Origin: a virus
Virus record (IMG/VR): IMGVR_UViG_3300026628_000004
Length of the DNA: 36,326 nucleotides
Direction: 5' to 3' (one strand)
The notes below the pieces were generated by a model. The model saw nothing but the letters and a program-made list of their open reading frames with translations. It was not told the DNA's origin and made no database searches. This document shows, piece by piece, positions 9,761 through 36,326 of the stretch. Every line of letters starts with the position of its first letter. Position 1 is the stretch's first letter. Position numbers and translations under genes: made by a program.

Positions 9761-9824
9761 ATAACAATACAGAATAACAAAATCTTTCCGGAAAGCCTGG
9801 CCATCAGCTGGATCCAAAGCCAGG
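9761..9824 (+). repeat. Palindrome-rich intergenic element, copy 1 (copy 2 at 33406-33469)
   Basis: About 64 bp aligns ungapped with roughly 5 mismatches. It contains the CTTTCCGGAAAG palindrome and a CCTGGC...GCCAGG stem enclosing CAGCTG and GGATCC. Confidence 0.85.
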
Positions 9825-9858
9825 TCAGGCTTTATCATAATAACAGAGGAAAACAACG

Positions 9859-27805: not shown

Positions 27806-28948
27806 ATGTCAGTAACAGGATTGCCCACCAGCCAGGGCATTGATATTCTCACAAGCAATCTGCGTGAGAATGTAACGAAATTTTGTTTATATGGTACAGA
27901 TACATCCTCAGGCACTGTTTCCTGGGATGAAAACTCAACACTTTCATCACTTTCTGCTTATCTGCTGGGAAAATTTGATATTGCAAGGGCATATTTTGAT
28001 GACAACGGCACACTAACTTTCGAATGTCCGATCCCATATGATTTCTCAGATACAAAATGGGTGGGTGCAGCAGGCATAATATATGTTGATGCAAATCTAT
28101 CCGAAACATTAGTGTCCGTAAGCCCTATGCCAAAGTTTCAAAAGACAGCCGGTATAGGTGGTACTATACGTTTTAAAGTGCCGATAGCAGGTGCAGCCGG
28201 CGATCTGATTTTTGAACAGATGCCATATGTATCAAAGCAAGAGTTAGACACAGTGTTAAACGAGATATTTTCAGGTATGTCTCTCTCTCTGGATGAGGCT
28301 TCAGTTGCAAACAAAGAGATACTGAAAACGCTTGATCAGAGAAATCAAACAGGCATTGCAACAATATATAACAGAGGTGTTGTGAAAGGCTGTGTTGCTT
28401 CTAAAAGTGCAGACTCAACAAGAAATATCTCACTCTCTTCCGGGCTGGTCTATATGCATGGCAGGTTAATTGCAGTGCCGGAACTGATTAACACTGCAAA
28501 TGTCCCGCCTAACACAGGTAGTGTAGCCAAAGATTCTTATTTGTTCCTGTGGGAAGATATCAATGGTGATATACAGGTTGACTGCACAACGCTCGATACT
28601 CAGCCCCCGGAAAACAGCATAACACTCTACAGGATAAATGTTCCTGCCGGTTCAACAGAGGCTACTGATCCGTATATAGGAAATTGCACACTGAATGATG
28701 TCAGAGTGCTTGAACCAAAATATCCGACACTGCTTGCAAATGCACCGCTTATCTATGTACCTCTTGAATTCGATCTGCTCGATGATGAATACCTTGTGCA
28801 ACTTGATATTCTCGATTTTGAAGGCGGAGGTTTTCAGCTCGGATATTGTTACGTAGGGGACAGAGCCAGCAACGGATTTAGCATATATCTAAACGGCACA
28901 GCGGATAAGGTGCGTGTGCGCTACAACGTATTAAAAAACAAGTTATAA
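27806..28948 (+). CDS. Putative tail fibre protein (call based on position)
   Basis: It follows J and I, the position of P2 gpH. AAGGAGG RBS. No recognisable motif. Confidence 0.4.
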   Translation: MSVTGLPTSQGIDILTSNLRENVTKFCLYGTDTSSGTVSWDENSTLSSLSAYLLGKFDIARAYFDDNGTLTFECPIPYDFSDTKWVGAAGIIYVDANLSETLVSVSPMPKFQKTAGIGGTIRFKVPIAGAAGDLIFEQMPYVSKQELDTVLNEIFSGMSLSLDEASVANKEILKTLDQRNQTGIATIYNRGVVKGCVASKSADSTRNISLSSGLVYMHGRLIAVPELINTANVPPNTGSVAKDSYLFLWEDINGDIQVDCTTLDTQPPENSITLYRINVPAGSTEATDPYIGNCTLNDVRVLEPKYPTLLANAPLIYVPLEFDLLDDEYLVQLDILDFEGGGFQLGYCYVGDRASNGFSIYLNGTADKVRVRYNVLKNKL

Positions 28949-28960
28949 GGAGGTATTTAC

Positions 28961-29287
28961 ATGAACTTTGAATACAAAGGAAAACAAGACGCAGAATATT
29001 CTGCATGTACCGTCGATGCCGATGTTGTAACTATCGGAGGGGAAACTTTTGATCTCGGGAGTCTTCAGACAGACGAACAAAAAATAATCGATGTCAAAGA
29101 AAACTCCAGGTACTTGGCAAACATTTTCATCCCGCCGGCAGAATATGACTACATCGAAACCGGTGAGACAGATATAGACGGGAACAAGATTTTTGAAAAA
29201 ACCAGAAAACCGGTTAACCAAGAAAAAGTTAAAATAATTCTATGGGAAAAGAAGCCAATAAATAATAACACAGAAGGAGGAATATAA
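28961..29287 (+). CDS. Hypothetical protein between the fibre and the DGR target
   Basis: AAGGAGG RBS. The stop abuts the start of the target gene. Confidence 0.45.
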   Translation: MNFEYKGKQDAEYSACTVDADVVTIGGETFDLGSLQTDEQKIIDVKENSRYLANIFIPPAEYDYIETGETDIDGNKIFEKTRKPVNQEKVKIILWEKKPINNNTEGGI

Positions 29288-29288
29288 A

Positions 29289-30317
29289 ATGCCAACAATT
29301 TTTACAAAAGACACATTGCGTGCCTCAGTCGAAGCTGCAACAGGAGGTAAAGTAACAGTATTGTACGATGACAAAGGTTATCCTTCATTTTGTCATGTAA
29401 TCCCGAAGTTCAACAATGAGGATATTGATCCCGCTCTTGGAACAGGTGTTTTCCCCGGTTTTATTGTCGGGGGGGTAGAAAAGAGCGAGATTTTCATCGG
29501 GCAGCAGCTTGCATCTGTTCAGGACGGACGCGCTGTTTCTTTGCCCGGGATGGATCCGGCAAATTACGTAACCTATGATGATGCAAATAATTACTGTAAG
29601 AACAAAGGTGCTGGCTGGCACTTGATGACAAACTGGGAATGGGCTGCAGTTGCTTTGTATTGCCTCAAGAACGGCTTTCAACCCCGCGGCAACACTGATT
29701 ACGGCCGCAGCCATGAGCTTACTCATGAAACTGCAGTAAGACAGGACGGTCTTGCACCGGGCGCAGCAGGTACAGCAAGATCATTGACAGGTTCAGGTCC
29801 AGCCAGTTGGAGGCACAACGATGATTTTACAGGTATTGCCGATTTGGTAGGTAACGTCTGGGAATGGACAGGAGGCCTGAAGTTAGTTGACGGTCAAATT
29901 ATCATGCCAAATGACAACAATTACGCCCTCGATGAGGTTAATTGGACATCTCAAGGTTACTTTTTTGATGCGTCAGCTGCCGGTGACGGGACAGGAGATG
30001 ACGCTGACCCGATCTTAAACAATCAGGTTACTACACCAATGACACCTGACAGCTATGCTCAGATTCCTAACTGGAAAGATTTGACAATAGATGCAGGCAT
30101 TACAGTCCCTAAGATTCTCCTACAGGCTTGCATAGCACCTTATGATATCACTAACCCAAAGGGAGCCCTATGGATACGAAACTATGGAGAGCGCATGCCG
30201 CTCCGTGGCGGTAACTGGTTCTATGCGTCCCATGCGGGCCTGTTTGCCTTGAACTTGGACAACGAGCGTTCGCTCTCGCGCAGCAATCTCGGGTTTCGGC
30301 CAGCTTTTGTTGGGTAA
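29289..30317 (+). CDS. DGR variable (target) protein with a C-type lectin / FGE-sulfatase-fold C-terminal domain; probable receptor-binding protein
   Basis: GAGWHLMTNWEWAAVA and GNVWEWTGG motifs. The last ~40 aa (aa 303-341) are encoded by the VR. It lies at the distal end of the tail fibre module. Confidence 0.85.
   Translation: MPTIFTKDTLRASVEAATGGKVTVLYDDKGYPSFCHVIPKFNNEDIDPALGTGVFPGFIVGGVEKSEIFIGQQLASVQDGRAVSLPGMDPANYVTYDDANNYCKNKGAGWHLMTNWEWAAVALYCLKNGFQPRGNTDYGRSHELTHETAVRQDGLAPGAAGTARSLTGSGPASWRHNDDFTGIADLVGNVWEWTGGLKLVDGQIIMPNDNNYALDEVNWTSQGYFFDASAAGDGTGDDADPILNNQVTTPMTPDSYAQIPNWKDLTIDAGITVPKILLQACIAPYDITNPKGALWIRNYGERMPLRGGNWFYASHAGLFALNLDNERSLSRSNLGFRPAFVG
30196..30311 (+). repeat. 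DGR variable region (VR)
   Basis: 116 bp aligns ungapped with 30728-30843. All 13 mismatches fall on adenines of the partner. It covers the 3-prime end of the target ORF. Confidence 0.9.
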
Positions 30318-30327
30318 CTAAATACTG

Positions 30328-30351
30328 ATTGCGGGGCGTTAGCCCCGCAAT
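30328..30351 (+). promoter_or_regulatory. GC-rich hairpin (10-bp stem ATTGCGGGGC/GCCCCGCAAT, loop GTTA) 16 nt downstream of the VR; DGR target-recognition hairpin candidate
   Basis: Read directly from the sequence. No equivalent hairpin follows the TR. Confidence 0.6.
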
Positions 30352-30394
30352 TGTTGCCTTATTCTCTATGGAGGGGAAATTGGAAGTCTTTAAA

Positions 30395-30715
30395 ATGAAA
30401 GAAAAATGTATTGATATGATCCAATATGGATATATAGCCTTGCAACAGTTTCCTAAGTCAGAAAAATTTACATTGGCTGCAGATATAAAAAGATATATGT
30501 ATTCTTTGCTTGAGAATATTGTAAAGCTTGCAAATTTAAGAGATAAAAAAAGAATTTTAAAAAATATAGATATATGCCTTGAAATGCTCAAAACATTCAT
30601 ACGCCTTGCACGAGATCTGAAATTTTTGAGCATCAAAAAGTACGAAATTATTTCAAGACATATTGTTGAGCTTGGCAAAATGAACGGTGGATACTGGAAA
30701 AGTCTAAAGGGATAA
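30395..30715 (+). CDS. avd: Accessory variability determinant (Avd), four-helix-bundle family
   Basis: It lies between the VR and the TR. The protein is basic and helical, with FPK.EKF.LA..I and ELGKMNGGYWKS segments resembling bAvd. The start could be 30368 or 30395; the ORF-track start at 30329 lies inside the hairpin. Confidence 0.8.
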   Translation: MKEKCIDMIQYGYIALQQFPKSEKFTLAADIKRYMYSLLENIVKLANLRDKKRILKNIDICLEMLKTFIRLARDLKFLSIKKYEIISRHIVELGKMNGGYWKSLKG

Positions 30716-30727
30716 AGCTGTAAAGTG

Positions 30728-30843
30728 TGCCGATCCGTGGCGGTAACTGGAACAATGCGTCCAATGCGGGCCTGTTTGCCTTGAACTTGAACAACGAGCG
30801 TTCGAACTCGAACAGCAATATCGGGTTTCGGCCAGCTTTAATT
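30728..30843 (+). repeat. DGR template repeat (TR)
   Basis: Partner of the VR. It has 27 adenines by my count and 10 in-phase AAY codons. It lies between avd and the RT. Confidence 0.9.
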
Positions 30844-30998
30844 CAAAGCTTGATATTGCAGACTCATGGGTTTGCAATCTATGCAAAAATAAAAGGAGCT
30901 TTATTCCTTCCTGTTACAGGAAAATATATACACACCTGGATGGTTAGTAAGCTAAATATGGCTGAAAGTGATCCGGGTTATTTTTACCAGGAGTTTTT

Positions 30999-32018
30999 AT
31001 GCCAAAAACAGCAAATAACATCTGGGATGAGGTTGTTGATTTTGAGAATCTATATTTTGCTTATCTTGCTGCAAGGAAATGTAAAAGATTTGCAAAAGAC
31101 GTTATGGAATATTCTGAAAGACTTGAAGAAAATCTTATTAATACACAGAACCATTTAATATGGAAAAGCTGGACTCCTCACCGCTGGAAAGAATTTTATG
31201 TACATGACCCTAAAACAAGGTTAATCCAAGCTCCCCAGTTTAGAGACAGGGTTGTTCATCATGCTCTTGTTAGAGTTGTCGAGCCATATTTTGAAAAGAA
31301 ATTTATCTATGATTCTTATGCCTGCAGAGTCAACAAAGGTACCCATGCTGCAATGCAAAGATTAAAACATTTTTTGCAAATAGCAACCAGGCAGCATTCT
31401 AATCCCTATATCCTAAAATGCGACATTAGAAAATATTTCCCATCTATTGATCATTATGCCCTGAAAAAGACAATCCGGAGAACAATAAAAGATGAAAACA
31501 CTCTTTGGCTCTTGGATAACACTATCGATCAGGAACCGAGTGGCAAAGGTTTACCCATTGGTTCTTTGACAAGTCAGCTTATGGCAAATGTAAATCTTGA
31601 TGTTTTAGATCATTATTGTAAAGACGAGCATGGTATCAAGTTTTATGTACGCTATATGGATGATTTTATTATAATTCATCATGATAAAGAATATCTAAAA
31701 TTTTTACTGGATGACTTAGGGTGGTTTTTGACAACAAACTTAGGCTTAAGCCTTAATTCTAAAACCCAAATTTTCCCTTACAATCAGGGTATAAATTTTT
31801 GCGGTTATCGTATTTGGCCAACACATGTATTGCCGAGAAAGAGAACAATCAGGAAAGCAAAAAACCGGTTCAGAAAATTTAGTAAACTTTATTGTGCCGG
31901 CAATATGTCGCTTGAAGATATAAAACCCTCTCTTATGAGTTTCCTGGGATATGCAAAACATTGCAATTCTTACAACACAGTATCTTCAATATTCGAAAAT
32001 CTTGTGTTCAAAAGATGA
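30999..32018 (+). CDS. DGR reverse transcriptase
   Basis: YMDD catalytic box (VRYMDDFIIIH) and the DGR-typical LPIGSLTSQLMANV motif. 339 aa. CAGGAG RBS. Confidence 0.92.
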   Translation: MPKTANNIWDEVVDFENLYFAYLAARKCKRFAKDVMEYSERLEENLINTQNHLIWKSWTPHRWKEFYVHDPKTRLIQAPQFRDRVVHHALVRVVEPYFEKKFIYDSYACRVNKGTHAAMQRLKHFLQIATRQHSNPYILKCDIRKYFPSIDHYALKKTIRRTIKDENTLWLLDNTIDQEPSGKGLPIGSLTSQLMANVNLDVLDHYCKDEHGIKFYVRYMDDFIIIHHDKEYLKFLLDDLGWFLTTNLGLSLNSKTQIFPYNQGINFCGYRIWPTHVLPRKRTIRKAKNRFRKFSKLYCAGNMSLEDIKPSLMSFLGYAKHCNSYNTVSSIFENLVFKR

Positions 32019-32030
32019 CAAATTATCCCC

Positions 32031-32057
32031 CAGGGGGCTAATAGGGGGCTAAAAATT
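32031..32057 (+). repeat. 27-bp direct repeat copy 1 (CAGGGGGCTAATAGGGGGCTAAAAATT); candidate integrase arm-type site
   Basis: Identical to 32282-32308. Each copy contains GGGGGCTA twice. The two copies flank the tRNA-fragment core. Confidence 0.6.
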
Positions 32058-32072
32058 TCAGCCCCTTTTTTT
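32045..32072 (+). terminator. Rho-independent terminator after the RT gene
   Basis: GGGGCT-N9-AGCCCC stem followed by TTTTTTT. Confidence 0.6.
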
Positions 32073-32112
32073 ACTTTTCCTGTAAATAACTGTGAAAATG
32101 GATTTTTAGAAA

Positions 32113-32154
32113 TGCGCCCGGCACGATTCGAACGTGCGACCTACGGATTAGAAG
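32113..32154 (-). tRNA. Partial tRNA, 3-prime part only: tRNA-Arg(UCU)-like anticodon loop, variable loop, T-arm and acceptor 3-prime strand; probable attP core
   Basis: The reverse complement reads CTTCTAA-TCCGT-AGGTC-GCACG-TTCGAAT-CGTGC-CGGGCGC-A. There is no D-arm or 5-prime acceptor strand, and the anticodon-stem pairing breaks down upstream. Confidence 0.6.
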
Positions 32155-32281
32155 TGCGATATTAGCGAACTTATCTCTGTTTGTCAATTTTTTTATTTAA
32201 AGATATCTTTCAGTGAAATATAAAGAAAATTGATTTTTACAAAATATTCGGTTACCCTTTAATACCCTGCTTTTTTCGCAT

Positions 32282-32308
32282 CAGGGGGCTAATAGGGGGC
32301 TAAAAATT
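32282..32308 (+). repeat. 27-bp direct repeat copy 2; overlaps the RBS and TTG start of int
   Basis: Identical to 32031-32057. Confidence 0.6.
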
Positions 32309-33386
32309 GTACAAGAAAACTAACCTACCCGGAGTGTTTTATTACCCGTCCAGAGTAAGAAAACACAAAGGTAAACCAGACAAGTGTTACTATATCAGAT
32401 ATTCAAGAAATGGCAAGAAAACAAGGGAGAAGATAGGCTGGCAAAGTGAGGGATTTTCTGCACACTTAGCAAGTCAGATACGTGCTGAACGTATCTCCGG
32501 ACACTATAAAGAAAAACAAAGCTTAACCGTAGAGGAAGCTGTAAAGAAGTATATAAATGCTGTCAAGGCAAATAAAGCCAGCTGGAAAGATGATCAGCAT
32601 CGATTAAAGCCTTTTTTAGATGATTATGGCCAGAGTCAAATCAATGATATAACTCCAGGGGATATTGAATCATATATAAATAGGATAAAAAAAGGCAACA
32701 GAAAACCTGCAACAGTAAAGCAATATCTGCAAGTTGTCAGGAGACTGTTTAATTACCTCAACGAGCAAGAGCTTTTTGACAAACAAAACCCAGCAGCTCG
32801 GGTAAAGGTCTCTGTGCCAGATAACACAGTTGTTGAAGCATTGACCCCTGAAGAATGTGAGAGGCTGCAGGATGTCTGTTTAAACAGCGAGATAAGATAT
32901 AACGGCGGATATGTTATCCTTTTTGCTTTATACACAGGTTTGAGGGCGTCAAGTCTTTTTCGGCTAAAATGGGAAGACGTGGATTTAAAAAAGAAATCCA
33001 TCAGGCTTAAAAAAACAAAAAATCGAAGGCAGGCAACTATCTTACTTTCTGATTTGGCTGTGGATCTCCTGGAATCTCTCGATCATAATGATGAATATGT
33101 GTTTCCATCTCCTTTTGGCGGGCAAAGAAAAGATATAAGACGAGTGTGGAAAAAAGTAAAAAGAGAAGCCGAAATTCGCCCTCACATCCGTTTTCATGAT
33201 CTCCGGCATACGTTTGCTACCATGCTCGCCGAAAAGGGCGTAGATTTGGATGTAATCAGTCGTATGCTTACCCACAGCAGCATTGTTGTCACTCAAAAAT
33301 ATGCACATATTAGAGATAAGCGTCTTAAAAAAGCTACCGGTGAAATAGATAATATTTTCAGATCCGATGATCCAGAACAAAATTAA
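32307..33386 (+). CDS. int: Tyrosine recombinase (phage integrase)
   Basis: LYTGLRASSLFRLKWEDVD (Arg box), HDLRHTFAT and THSSIVVTQKYAH (catalytic Tyr). TTG start after AGGGGG. Confidence 0.9.
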   Translation: MYKKTNLPGVFYYPSRVRKHKGKPDKCYYIRYSRNGKKTREKIGWQSEGFSAHLASQIRAERISGHYKEKQSLTVEEAVKKYINAVKANKASWKDDQHRLKPFLDDYGQSQINDITPGDIESYINRIKKGNRKPATVKQYLQVVRRLFNYLNEQELFDKQNPAARVKVSVPDNTVVEALTPEECERLQDVCLNSEIRYNGGYVILFALYTGLRASSLFRLKWEDVDLKKKSIRLKKTKNRRQATILLSDLAVDLLESLDHNDEYVFPSPFGGQRKDIRRVWKKVKREAEIRPHIRFHDLRHTFATMLAEKGVDLDVISRMLTHSSIVVTQKYAHIRDKRLKKATGEIDNIFRSDDPEQN

Positions 33387-33405: not shown

Positions 33406-33469
33406 ATAACAATACAGAGCAATAAAATCTTTCCGGAAAGCCTGGCCACGAGCTGGATCCAAAGCCAGG
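33406..33469 (+). repeat. Palindrome-rich intergenic element, copy 2 (copy 1 at 9761-9824)
   Basis: Same alignment as copy 1. In this copy the outer stem extends to 8 bp (AGCCTGGC/GCCAGGCT). Confidence 0.85.
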
Positions 33470-33539
33470 CTAAGCACCAACATAACAACCTACCATAATA
33501 TATAATAAAGAAGCTCTCAGGCGGGCACACAAGCATAGA

Positions 33540-35500: not shown

Positions 35501-36298
35501 ATGGAAATCGTAAAATTTAACAACGAACAGTTTGGTGAACTAAGAATTGCAGACATTGAGGGTAACCCGTGGTTTGTAGCAAGAGATGTTGCTGAAGCCT
35601 TAGGGTATAAGGACGCAATTAACGCTGTTAAGCTGCATTGCAAAGGGGTGGTAAAATACCACCCCTATAAACAGCGGGTTTCAGACGGGGTCGTGAAACA
35701 CGACCCCTATGAACAGGACATCTCAGGCGGTCAGGCATATAATATTATTCCTGAGTCTGATTTTTACCGCCTTGTACTGCGCTCTAAGCTTCCAAATGCT
35801 GAGCGTTTCCAGGACTGGGTGACATCGGAAGTGCTTCCGTCGATTCGCAAGACAGGCACATACTCATTATATGAGCGGGTTGACAGTGCTGATCTTTCGA
35901 TGAAATGCGAATTCCTGAAGCAGGTGAGGCTTTCCGCACAAAACTTGCCTGGCTGGCAGCGGAGACAGGCTATTGTGCAGAGCCTTGAGTCTGTGGGCCT
36001 GCGTGTCAAAGCCGGCATAAATGATGAAACGGCTGATTTCGTAAATGCCGTTGTCACAAAAGATATCCAGTATTTCGAGCACTTGAAGGAAAATCACCCT
36101 ACCCTTTACGATTCGATTGCCAGCAATTTTGAGCGCAATAGAATCAGGAGCAATGACATAATAAAGGCTTACCAAATCATGTGTAACCCAACACTTTCTT
36201 CAAAAGCTGTGATGGCAAAAATCAGGGAGTATGACTCCCGCTTTTCCGTATCAGAAGTAAGCCGTATTAGCTCAGAAAAGTACTACAAAATACAATAA
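35501..36298 (+). CDS. BRO-N domain antirepressor-like protein
   Basis: FNNEQFGELRI....GNPWFVARDVAEALGY......A...HCKGV ... IIPESDFYRLVLRSKLPNAERFQDWVTSEVLPSIRKTG is the classic BRO-N pattern. Confidence 0.8.
   Translation: MEIVKFNNEQFGELRIADIEGNPWFVARDVAEALGYKDAINAVKLHCKGVVKYHPYKQRVSDGVVKHDPYEQDISGGQAYNIIPESDFYRLVLRSKLPNAERFQDWVTSEVLPSIRKTGTYSLYERVDSADLSMKCEFLKQVRLSAQNLPGWQRRQAIVQSLESVGLRVKAGINDETADFVNAVVTKDIQYFEHLKENHPTLYDSIASNFERNRIRSNDIIKAYQIMCNPTLSSKAVMAKIREYDSRFSVSEVSRISSEKYYKIQ
35645..35728 (+). repeat. In-frame 2 x 42-bp tandem duplication inside the BRO-N gene; each unit begins with a perfect hairpin
   Basis: Unit 1 is GGGGTGG-TAAAATA-CCACCCC TATAAACAG. Unit 2 is GGGGTCGTG-AAA-CACGACCCC TATGAACAG. 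Confidence 0.8.
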
Positions 36299-36326
36299 TA
36301 GGAGAAAAAACAATAATGAGAAAAAA
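36200..36326. repeat. Terminal overlap copy B, identical to 1-127
   Basis: Same comparison as copy A. The offset is 36,199 bp. Confidence 0.95.

Follow-up and report, generated by a model that had tools for sequence, protein, structure and literature searches.

A BPP-1-type diversity-generating retroelement, almost certainly active, that targets a TaqVP-like protein in a phage genome from IMG/VR

The 36,326-nucleotide viral DNA catalogued as IMG/VR record IMGVR_UViG_3300026628_000004 (hereafter "the window", meaning this stretch at its full length) carries a diversity-generating retroelement (DGR) between its baseplate genes and its integrase gene. Almost certainly this is a canonical, active phage DGR of the BPP-1 type that diversifies a TaqVP-like, tail-associated protein at the adenines of a template repeat (TR). 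The case is carried by observations made directly on the DNA: the cassette components, the specificity for adenine, the hypervariation of the variable repeat (VR) between near-identical genomes in which the TR stays constant, and the 3′ boundary of the diversified tract. After the baseplate genes come a 380-aa open reading frame (ORF), a 108-aa ORF, the target gene, a hairpin, avd, the TR, a spacer (Sp) and the reverse transcriptase (RT) gene. The elements of the cassette, including the tails termed initiation of mutagenic homing (IMH) in the VR and IMH* in the TR, are as follows.

29289..30317, plus strand: target (variable protein) gene, 342 aa; TaqVP-type, FGE-subtype C-type lectin (CLec) with the VR at its extreme C-terminus
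30196..30311, plus strand: VR, with diversified tract 30201-30288 and invariant IMH-like 3′ end 30289-30311
30328..30351, plus strand: GC-rich hairpin or cruciform (DNA fold) between the target stop codon and the avd start
30380..30715, plus strand: avd (accessory variability determinant), probable extent, 111 aa; Pfam bAvd, NCBIfam DivGenRetAVD
30708..30720, plus strand: upstream strand of the stop duplex, AAGGGAUAAAGCU, spanning the avd stop codon; predicted 13-bp RNA duplex with the spacer
30728..30843, plus strand: TR, with putative copied part 30728-30835 and IMH*-like tail 30836-30843
30836..30978, plus strand: DGR spacer (Sp) RNA, Rfam RF02921 (RT-14)
30999..32018, plus strand: DGR reverse transcriptase, 339 aa; Pfam RVT_1, match to PDB 8ub7

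Pairwise alignment joins the VR to the TR without gaps at an offset of 532, and returns exactly the 13 mismatches that a preliminary description of this DNA had listed (TR positions 30733, 30751, 30752, 30754, 30763, 30790, 30805, 30806, 30811, 30812, 30820, 30840 and 30841). Every one falls on an A of the TR and there are no others, so that the window holds no mismatch at another base, which that description had named as grounds for abandoning its reading. Adenines account for 27 of the 116 TR nucleotides, and the probability that 13 random positions would all land on A is 3.6e-10; for the 11 positions that are unambiguous, within 112 nt, P = 8.5e-9. Similarity collapses on either side of the 116-nt block. 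A repeat search placed the end of the repeat at 30307/30839, and the mismatches at 30840 and 30841 lie only 2-3 nt from the end of similarity. A second or remote VR was considered and rejected, because repeat searches of the window gave this one TR/VR pair only and no second or remote copy of the repeat.

Read in the frame of the target gene, the TR contains 10 AAY codons, six of which are altered in the VR (N to F, Y, H, D, L and R), in agreement with the preliminary description. The further altered codons are ATC at 30733, ATC at 30820, ATT at 30841 and TTA at 30838-30840. Three ATY codons and one TTA codon had been reported as changed, and as differences they are; the ATT and TTA, however, lie at the 3′ boundary, so only two ATY codons are diversified. 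Nearly all adenines (25 of 27) occupy codon position 1 or 2. The diversified tract, TR 30733-30820, comprises 14 variable codons (ten AAY, two ATC, one GAG and one AGC), none of which can become a stop codon through mutation of an A, and the tract has no A at a wobble position, so every A substitution is nonsynonymous. The arithmetic by which a mutagenised AAY codon yields 15 amino acids and no stop codon is correct. The derived figure of 6 x 10^11 variants holds for the AAY codons alone and is only a lower bound as a total; adding the two ATC codons, GAG and AGC gives ~1.5 x 10^14 proteins.

Five further contigs, which come from different samples, encode an RT protein identical to that of the window, and all five share its TR unchanged. 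Four VR alleles are found on contigs that are otherwise 95.8-100% identical. One contig, L003, has the same VR as the window. Between the window and L002, whose RT and TR are identical to the window's, there are 20 differences over 6451 bp, and 19 of these lie within VR 30201-30288 (clustering P ~7e-35), 18 of the 19 at sites that are A in the TR. The differences between L001 and the window are confined to 30059-30338, and L006 and L007 represent a sister phage with 95.8% identity to the window. Over the four alleles, 23 of the 24 adenines in 30733-30820 are variable, and changes of A to C, to G and to T are all found, which excludes a deaminase-like process. The TR of L006 has C30771T relative to the window and its VR also has T there, a natural marker consistent with transfer from TR to VR. 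The alleles thus combine a hypervariable VR and a constant TR with directional transfer from the second to the first, and the earlier proviso that an invariant VR in population data would count against diversification is answered by contigs of the same RT and the same TR that bear differing VRs, almost only at TR-A sites. Scans of the viral_contigs and metagenome_contigs collections for additional alleles with an A-degenerate pattern gave the L006 contig only. The same module is present beside targets 65-74% identical to that of the window in L090, L091, L092 and L094, where VR/TR differences in the scored block are confined to A or nearly so (16/16, 11/13, 11/11 and 8/8, respectively).

Two further observations concern the alleles themselves. 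L001 (JGI 3300026626) is identical to the window over ~8.7 kb except in a 280-bp patch around the VR. In its flanks this patch equals L006 (0 differences in 156 nt), and the L001 VR carries the L006-type T at 30771 while its own TR has C. These sequences suggest either that phages circulating together have recombined in the VR region or that the metagenome assembly is chimeric, and such an event with an L006-type donor would account for the single "non-A" mismatch of L001 (T at 30771). In addition, the substitution spectrum differs by allele: A-to-G makes up 14 of 18 changes in L002, and the window has five changes to C, four to T and two to G, in a sample too small to separate RT bias, selection and host dNTP pools.

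The mismatches at 30840 and 30841, which change codons TTA to TTT and ATT to GTT, stand apart from the other 11. Their VR equivalents are TG in all four alleles and in both lineages, for which the chance would be ~2e-4 were these sites mutagenised like the others. The L006 TR has C instead of A at 30840 and the L006 VR keeps T, producing a non-A mismatch there. No A located 3′ of 30820, A30834 included, varies among the four alleles, and in relatives with 65-74% identical targets the homology between TR and VR ends exactly at CCAG (corresponding to 30832-30835). The invariant tail has a G/C-rich start, TCGGGTTTCGGCCAGCTTT, followed by TGTT in the VR versus AATT in the TR. An IMH/IMH* tail is an imperfect repeat that opens with a GC-rich segment and follows the A-to-N zone on its 3′ side (PMC5758913); the tail in the window has this form as a sequence feature, and by analogy would have the same function. 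Because TG is fixed and the VR does not follow the change at TR 30840, the two positions are boundary differences between IMH and IMH* and not products of mutagenesis. They are probably never copied into cDNA, and the true mutagenic substitutions in the window number 11, not 13. The preliminary description had taken 13 substitutions as proof of activity; that the DGR is active stands, on its components and the population of VRs, with just 11 mutagenic events.

Both proteins expected of such a cassette are encoded next to the TR. The RT matches Pfam RVT_1 (5e-21), and the motifs IGSLTSQ and YMDD can be read in its ORF. Its best PDB match, over the full length, is 8ub7 (3.6e-56), whereas group II intron RTs reach merely 4e-21. 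We identify 8ub7 as the BPP-1 RT, Brt, because its YMDD at 213-216 corresponds to Brt numbering (PMC3240598). It accordingly belongs with the DGR clade, having greater similarity to Brt than to the RTs of group II introns or retrons, and carries that clade's [LIV]GxxxSQ and YMDD signatures. The accessory protein, which in DGRs is an Avd or HRDC-type protein beside the TR, is an Avd, with matches to Pfam bAvd (5e-28, 98 bits) and to NCBIfam DivGenRetAVD (99.6 bits, cutoff 80); a search of the PDB gave no sequence-level match for it. The avd gene probably extends over 30380-30715: the longest ORF runs from 30329, but a TTG start at 30380 has a GGAGG ribosome-binding site, and the resulting length of 111 aa also appears in gene calls on sister contigs.

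The VR forms the last 39 codons of the target, placing the diversity in a variation-tolerant CLec fold. The target protein matches Pfam FGE-sulfatase (6e-11) and phrog_2889 (3e-128, 429 bits), and belongs to a family with >2800 homologues at E <1e-5. Its closest structural relative is the Thermus aquaticus protein TaqVP (PDB 5VF4), to which it is homologous over its full length by phmmer (1.4e-85, ~44-45% identity), a profile search giving 1.8e-110 with residues 4-342 covered. An AlphaFold2 model (pLDDT 84.6) retrieved 5VF4 as the top Foldseek hit (TM 0.87), followed by TvpA, EgtB/FGE-type proteins and Mtd. The features of the TaqVP type are all present, namely an N-terminal wrap, an FGE-type CLec core, a C-terminal VR and an invariant RPAFV tail, the last of which was assigned to the IMH by the TaqVP authors. 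The VR occupies the same place in both proteins, and the invariant Trp is kept (W349 in TaqVP, W310 in the window target). All nine variable residues of TaqVP (I344, D348, N351, V354, Y361, N364, S368, R370 and G372) fall on A-containing TR codons of the window, a correspondence taken from the phmmer alignment to 5VF4 and the residue list of the TaqVP paper. The window differs in having fourteen variable codons and not nine, the extras being F311, D324, E326, S332 and L334 in the window allele, and in presenting a variable AGC codon in its TR at the position of TaqVP W371. Its protein is also phage-borne, encoded beside baseplate genes and 40 residues shorter. The best explanation of these data is that up to 14 variable residues occupy the face with which a TaqVP-like C-type lectin binds its ligand. 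Because the target gene immediately follows baseplate and tail-fibre genes, its product is presumably, by analogy, a receptor-binding protein that sets host range.

A spacer of 155 nt separates the TR from the RT gene, and cmscan matched the Rfam RNA RT-14 (RF02921) to 30836-30978 with 71.2 bits, against a gathering score of 48.1. The unconstrained minimum free energy (MFE) fold of 30690-30998 contains a 13-bp duplex of AAGGGAUAAAGCU (30708-30720) with AGCUUUAUUCCUU (30897-30909), directly followed by a hairpin, CCUG-UUA-CAGG (30910-30920), and then by an A-rich run. Other parts of the Sp are a 9-bp stem-loop at 30855-30878 and a 3′ hairpin at ~30935-30979. The Sp strand of the 13-bp duplex is a highly conserved segment that is modelled as unpaired in RT-14. 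In addition, AAUAAAAG (30888-30895) can pair at 7 of 8 positions with CUUUAAUU of the TR (30836-30843), with its mismatch at A30840, and a single nucleotide, G30896, separates this potential primer strand from the stop-duplex strand.

This arrangement resembles that of the BPP-1 ribonucleoprotein, in which Sp 47-56 forms a duplex with TR 117-129, Sp A56 primes the cDNA in cis, synthesis begins at TR G117 such that the final 17 TR nucleotides are uncopied, and, two nucleotides on, Sp 59-70 pairs with the avd end ("cPRT Stop"), followed by a short stem-loop and A-minor adenosines (10.1101/2023.10.23.563531). From this analogy we infer that the 13-bp duplex between the avd end and the Sp is the counterpart of cPRT Stop. 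It also seems rather probable that G30895, paired to C30836, is the priming nucleotide and G30835 the first templated base, which would define the exact start site. Positions 30840 and 30841 would then be part of the primer duplex, on its template strand, and therefore would never be reverse-transcribed, explaining the fixed TG. The A-to-C change at 30840 in L006 hits the sole unpaired position of this duplex. In the four relatives, a primer duplex of 8-9 bp located one base past CCAG, a linker of 1-3 nt and a stop duplex of 12-13 bp are followed by a short hairpin and an A-run, with sequences that differ and pairs that are compensated. These duplexes were compared sequence by sequence, because a MAFFT alignment of avd-TR-Sp across the relatives misaligned the spacer. 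A DGR spacer RNA is thus indicated by the RT-14 match, the avd:Sp duplex and the layout in relatives, and its role in priming by analogy.

Together these features lead us to favor, with some reservation, a functional reading of RT-14 (and the overlapping RT-9) as the spacer RNA shared by a large class of phage DGRs with TaqVP-type targets, in which UUUAUUCCUU would be the stop-duplex strand that pairs with the avd end and the first helix would be the template:primer duplex. RT-10, a sibling of RT-14, sits at the same place in BPP-1, and RT-10 alone was explicitly tied to DGRs by Weinberg et al. in 2017, RT-14 being given no function (PMC5737381). Compared with the published RT-14, the first helix in the window takes in the last 6-8 nt of a verified TR; compared with the Rfam model, the conserved "single-stranded" UUUAUUCCUU pairs in the window with the avd end, which lies outside the model. 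If the reading is true, the cDNA start site (G30835) could be read straight from sequence, and the directionality between TR and VR would rest on as few as two nucleotides (AA versus TG) plus a hairpin with a non-consensus loop. RT-14 lies beside just two of 18 distant RT loci, L013 and L023; a simple complement search for the stop duplex was negative in these copies, which are too divergent for it. In L023 the RT-14 match (1644-1796) is downstream of the RT gene and not upstream, an arrangement that hints at another gene order or at a second cassette. As a separate observation in the window, GCAAUAUC at the 3′ end of the diversified TR (30815-30822) is perfectly complementary to GAUAUUGC in the spacer (30852-30859), and this pairing competes in the MFE fold with the RT-14 9-bp stem-loop at 30855-30878; it may represent an alternative ("resting") conformation of the RNA.

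Seventeen nucleotides past the VR, at 30328-30351, the hairpin ATTGCGGGGC-GTTA-GCCCCGCAAT has a GC-rich stem of 10 bp and a 4-nt loop. Folded as DNA it has z = -4.4, with none of 200 shuffles as stable. Phage DGR hairpins have GC-rich stems of 7-10 bp and 4-nt loops and lie 4-34 bp from the VR (PMC3240598), and the hairpin of the window fits this pattern in stem, loop length and spacing. We also considered a transcription terminator at this site, but rejected it, the hairpin being without a T tract.

The element would work as follows, with BPP-1 as the model for where priming occurs, for the stop duplex, for what the IMH and hairpin do, and for receptor binding by the target. An RNA covering the avd end, TR and spacer would be bound by a complex of RT and Avd. 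The spacer would cis-prime cDNA synthesis, at a predicted G30895 and with G30835 as the first templated base, and synthesis would proceed 5′-ward through the TR with random misincorporation opposite adenines. The target gene would then have its 3′-terminal VR replaced by the homologous cDNA, a step guided by the VR's IMH-like 3′ end together with the GC hairpin downstream of it. As the outcome, up to 14 residues would be hypervaried, corresponding to ~1.5 x 10^14 proteins.

Other explanations of the same sequences must be set beside an active DGR. A fossil cassette, intact yet inactive and with VR/TR differences that are old, gains something from the fact that a single genome cannot tell past from present activity, and something from the non-consensus loop of the hairpin. 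We consider it very unlikely, however, given that VRs differing at 19 positions sit on near-identical ~6.4-kb backgrounds, which implies VR turnover far above the background mutation rate, and that every ORF is intact and five contigs share an identical TR. Still harder to credit, to the point of being nearly negligible, is an ordinary duplication or gene-conversion tract diverged by normal mutation, whose adenine pattern would be coincidence or composition bias. The existence of a 116-bp imperfect direct repeat is what this account has in its favor, and nothing more. It does not predict that 13 of 13 differences fall on A (P = 3.6e-10), nor substitutions to C, G and T, which also exclude a deaminase-type A-to-G process, and it leaves aside the adjacent Avd, Brt-like RT and Sp RNA and the same pattern in four related cassettes.

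A narrower question is whether all 13 mismatches, 30840 and 30841 included, stem from adenine mutagenesis, with TG kept by selection or by shared descent. Both positions are A in the window TR, similarity runs on for two bases (TT) beyond them such that six of the eight positions after CCAG match (chance ~0.004), and the VR codons there (F and V) belong to the conserved beta5 strand, on which selection could plausibly act. Nonetheless, TG persists in four alleles and two lineages while 23 of 24 upstream adenines vary, and the L006 VR still has T where its TR has C at 30840. Homology in the relatives stops at CCAG, and the TaqVP authors assigned the last 7 codons to the IMH. Moreover, the two positions would fall on the 3′ side of the initiation site, inside the template:primer duplex as predicted, and the last 17 nt of the BPP-1 TR are likewise uncopied (10.1101/2023.10.23.563531). 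We therefore judge it improbable that these two mismatches are mutagenic, and retain them as boundary differences.

Several points nevertheless count against the reading of the region as an active BPP-1-type DGR. The hairpin loop reads GTTA in the window and ATTA in the L006 lineage, neither of which fits the GRNA consensus, and in BPP-1 the sequence of the GRNA loop is critical (PMC3240598). No obvious GC-rich hairpin is seen within 60-70 nt past the VR in the ~70% relatives, for which no systematic scan was made; post-VR inverted repeats are present in just 34% of DGRs (PMC5758913). In L002 a single change, T to G at the site matching TR 30760, is not at an A, and one mismatch of this kind is too strict a ground for rejection in general, since 23% of DGRs show non-A exceptions (PMC5758913). 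The VR alleles were taken from metagenome assemblies, so any one of them may merge a mixed population into a consensus or a chimera. The template:primer duplex of the window is weak, with 7 of 8 pairs formed, mostly A-U, and the RNAduplex optimum lay elsewhere; the register of the primer pairing is also off by 2 nt in the Rfam alignment. Finally, the case for a cDNA intermediate and for RT dependence is drawn from sequence, not from biochemistry.

The window shows each defining DGR feature that sequence analysis can address. Among characterised systems the BPP-1 DGR (mtd-avd-TR-brt) is nearest in mechanism and layout, and the T. aquaticus DGR is nearest in its target. Compared with BPP-1, the window has the same gene order of target, avd, TR, spacer and RT, a VR at the C-terminus of a tail-associated protein of CLec fold, mismatches at A only, AAY codons, an imperfect IMH/IMH* tail, and a GC-rich hairpin with a 4-nt loop after the VR. 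The RT match to Brt (3.6e-56), the Avd equivalog and the predicted RNA layout of primer duplex, stop duplex, short hairpin and A-run extend the likeness. The differences are that the target is a 342-aa single-domain protein of the TaqVP type and not the trimeric Mtd (Foldseek to Mtd E ~0.02), that the spacer matches RT-14 and not RT-10, and that the hairpin loop is GTTA and not GAAA/GRNA. Furthermore, the IMH and IMH* differ at 2 positions only, the shared tail extends 8 nt beyond the predicted start site rather than 17 nt, and the predicted priming nucleotide is G, in contrast to A56 of BPP-1. Among cultured phages none is close at the DNA level, the TR being the sole nucleotide-level similarity. 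Vibrio phages VHML and VP585, Pseudoalteromonas phage ACA1 and Bacillus phage BalMu-1 have TRs 75-79% identical to that of the window over ~108 nt, with no nucleotide similarity elsewhere and hence a phage backbone unrelated in DNA sequence. A post-VR hairpin has been described for the DGR of VHML, among other phages (PMC3240598). Searching genome_contigs with the RT gave top matches of just 35-44% identity, scattered across many phyla.

The window leaves known DGR biology unchanged and offers a good textbook example rather than a new kind of system: a natural DGR in action, with a complete genome, an invariant TR and several VR alleles on an otherwise identical backbone, and with a TR point mutation in the sister lineage that acts as a natural marker-transfer experiment. 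Modestly new are the allele series with its TR marker, the minimal 2-nt difference between IMH and IMH*, the non-consensus hairpin loop and the proposed reading of Rfam RT-14 as a DGR spacer RNA, which would help to assign a function to RT-14. The cassette can serve as an annotation reference and possibly as an engineering scaffold, TaqVP-type CLec domains being candidates for surface display.

The genome around the cassette has a GC content of 42% and a perfect terminal direct repeat of 127 nt (1-127 = 36200-36326). It encodes a terminase, portal, protease, major head protein, sheath, tape measure, baseplate J and P2 gpI, as well as an integrase. From this set of structural and tail genes, the integrase and the terminal repeat, the sequence is judged to be the complete genome of a temperate myovirus of ~36.2 kb, circularly closed or terminally redundant. 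The target allele of the window is also found on a 44-kb contig, possibly an integrated copy. Directly upstream of the target, at 27806-29287, the 380-aa and 108-aa ORFs have no Pfam match and belong to PHROGs of unknown function. They are kept in the same order with target, avd and RT across all related myoviruses examined (L090-L094), and their products may be a fibre or adaptor that bears the variable protein.

Downstream of the cassette, between the RT stop codon and the integrase start, 32019-32310 is an attP-like region. It contains perfect 27-nt direct repeats, CAGGGGGCTAATAGGGGGCTAAAAATT, at 32031-32057 and 32282-32308, which together yield four exact copies of AGGGGGCTAA. Between these repeats, the minus strand at ~32113-32150 shows a CTTCTAA anticodon loop, a T-loop (GTTCGAATC) and an acceptor strand, which look like the 3′ half of a tRNA resembling tRNA-Arg(UCU); neither ARAGORN nor Rfam made a call for this partial tRNA. 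Just downstream of the integrase gene, 33406-33489 forms an 84-nt direct repeat of 85% identity with 9761-9844, an intergenic copy (ORF end 9760, next ORF start 10202) that lies just upstream of the portal gene. RNA folding of the repeat is weakly better than that of shuffles, and each copy holds an imperfect palindrome, GCCTGGCC...GGATCC...GCCAGG.

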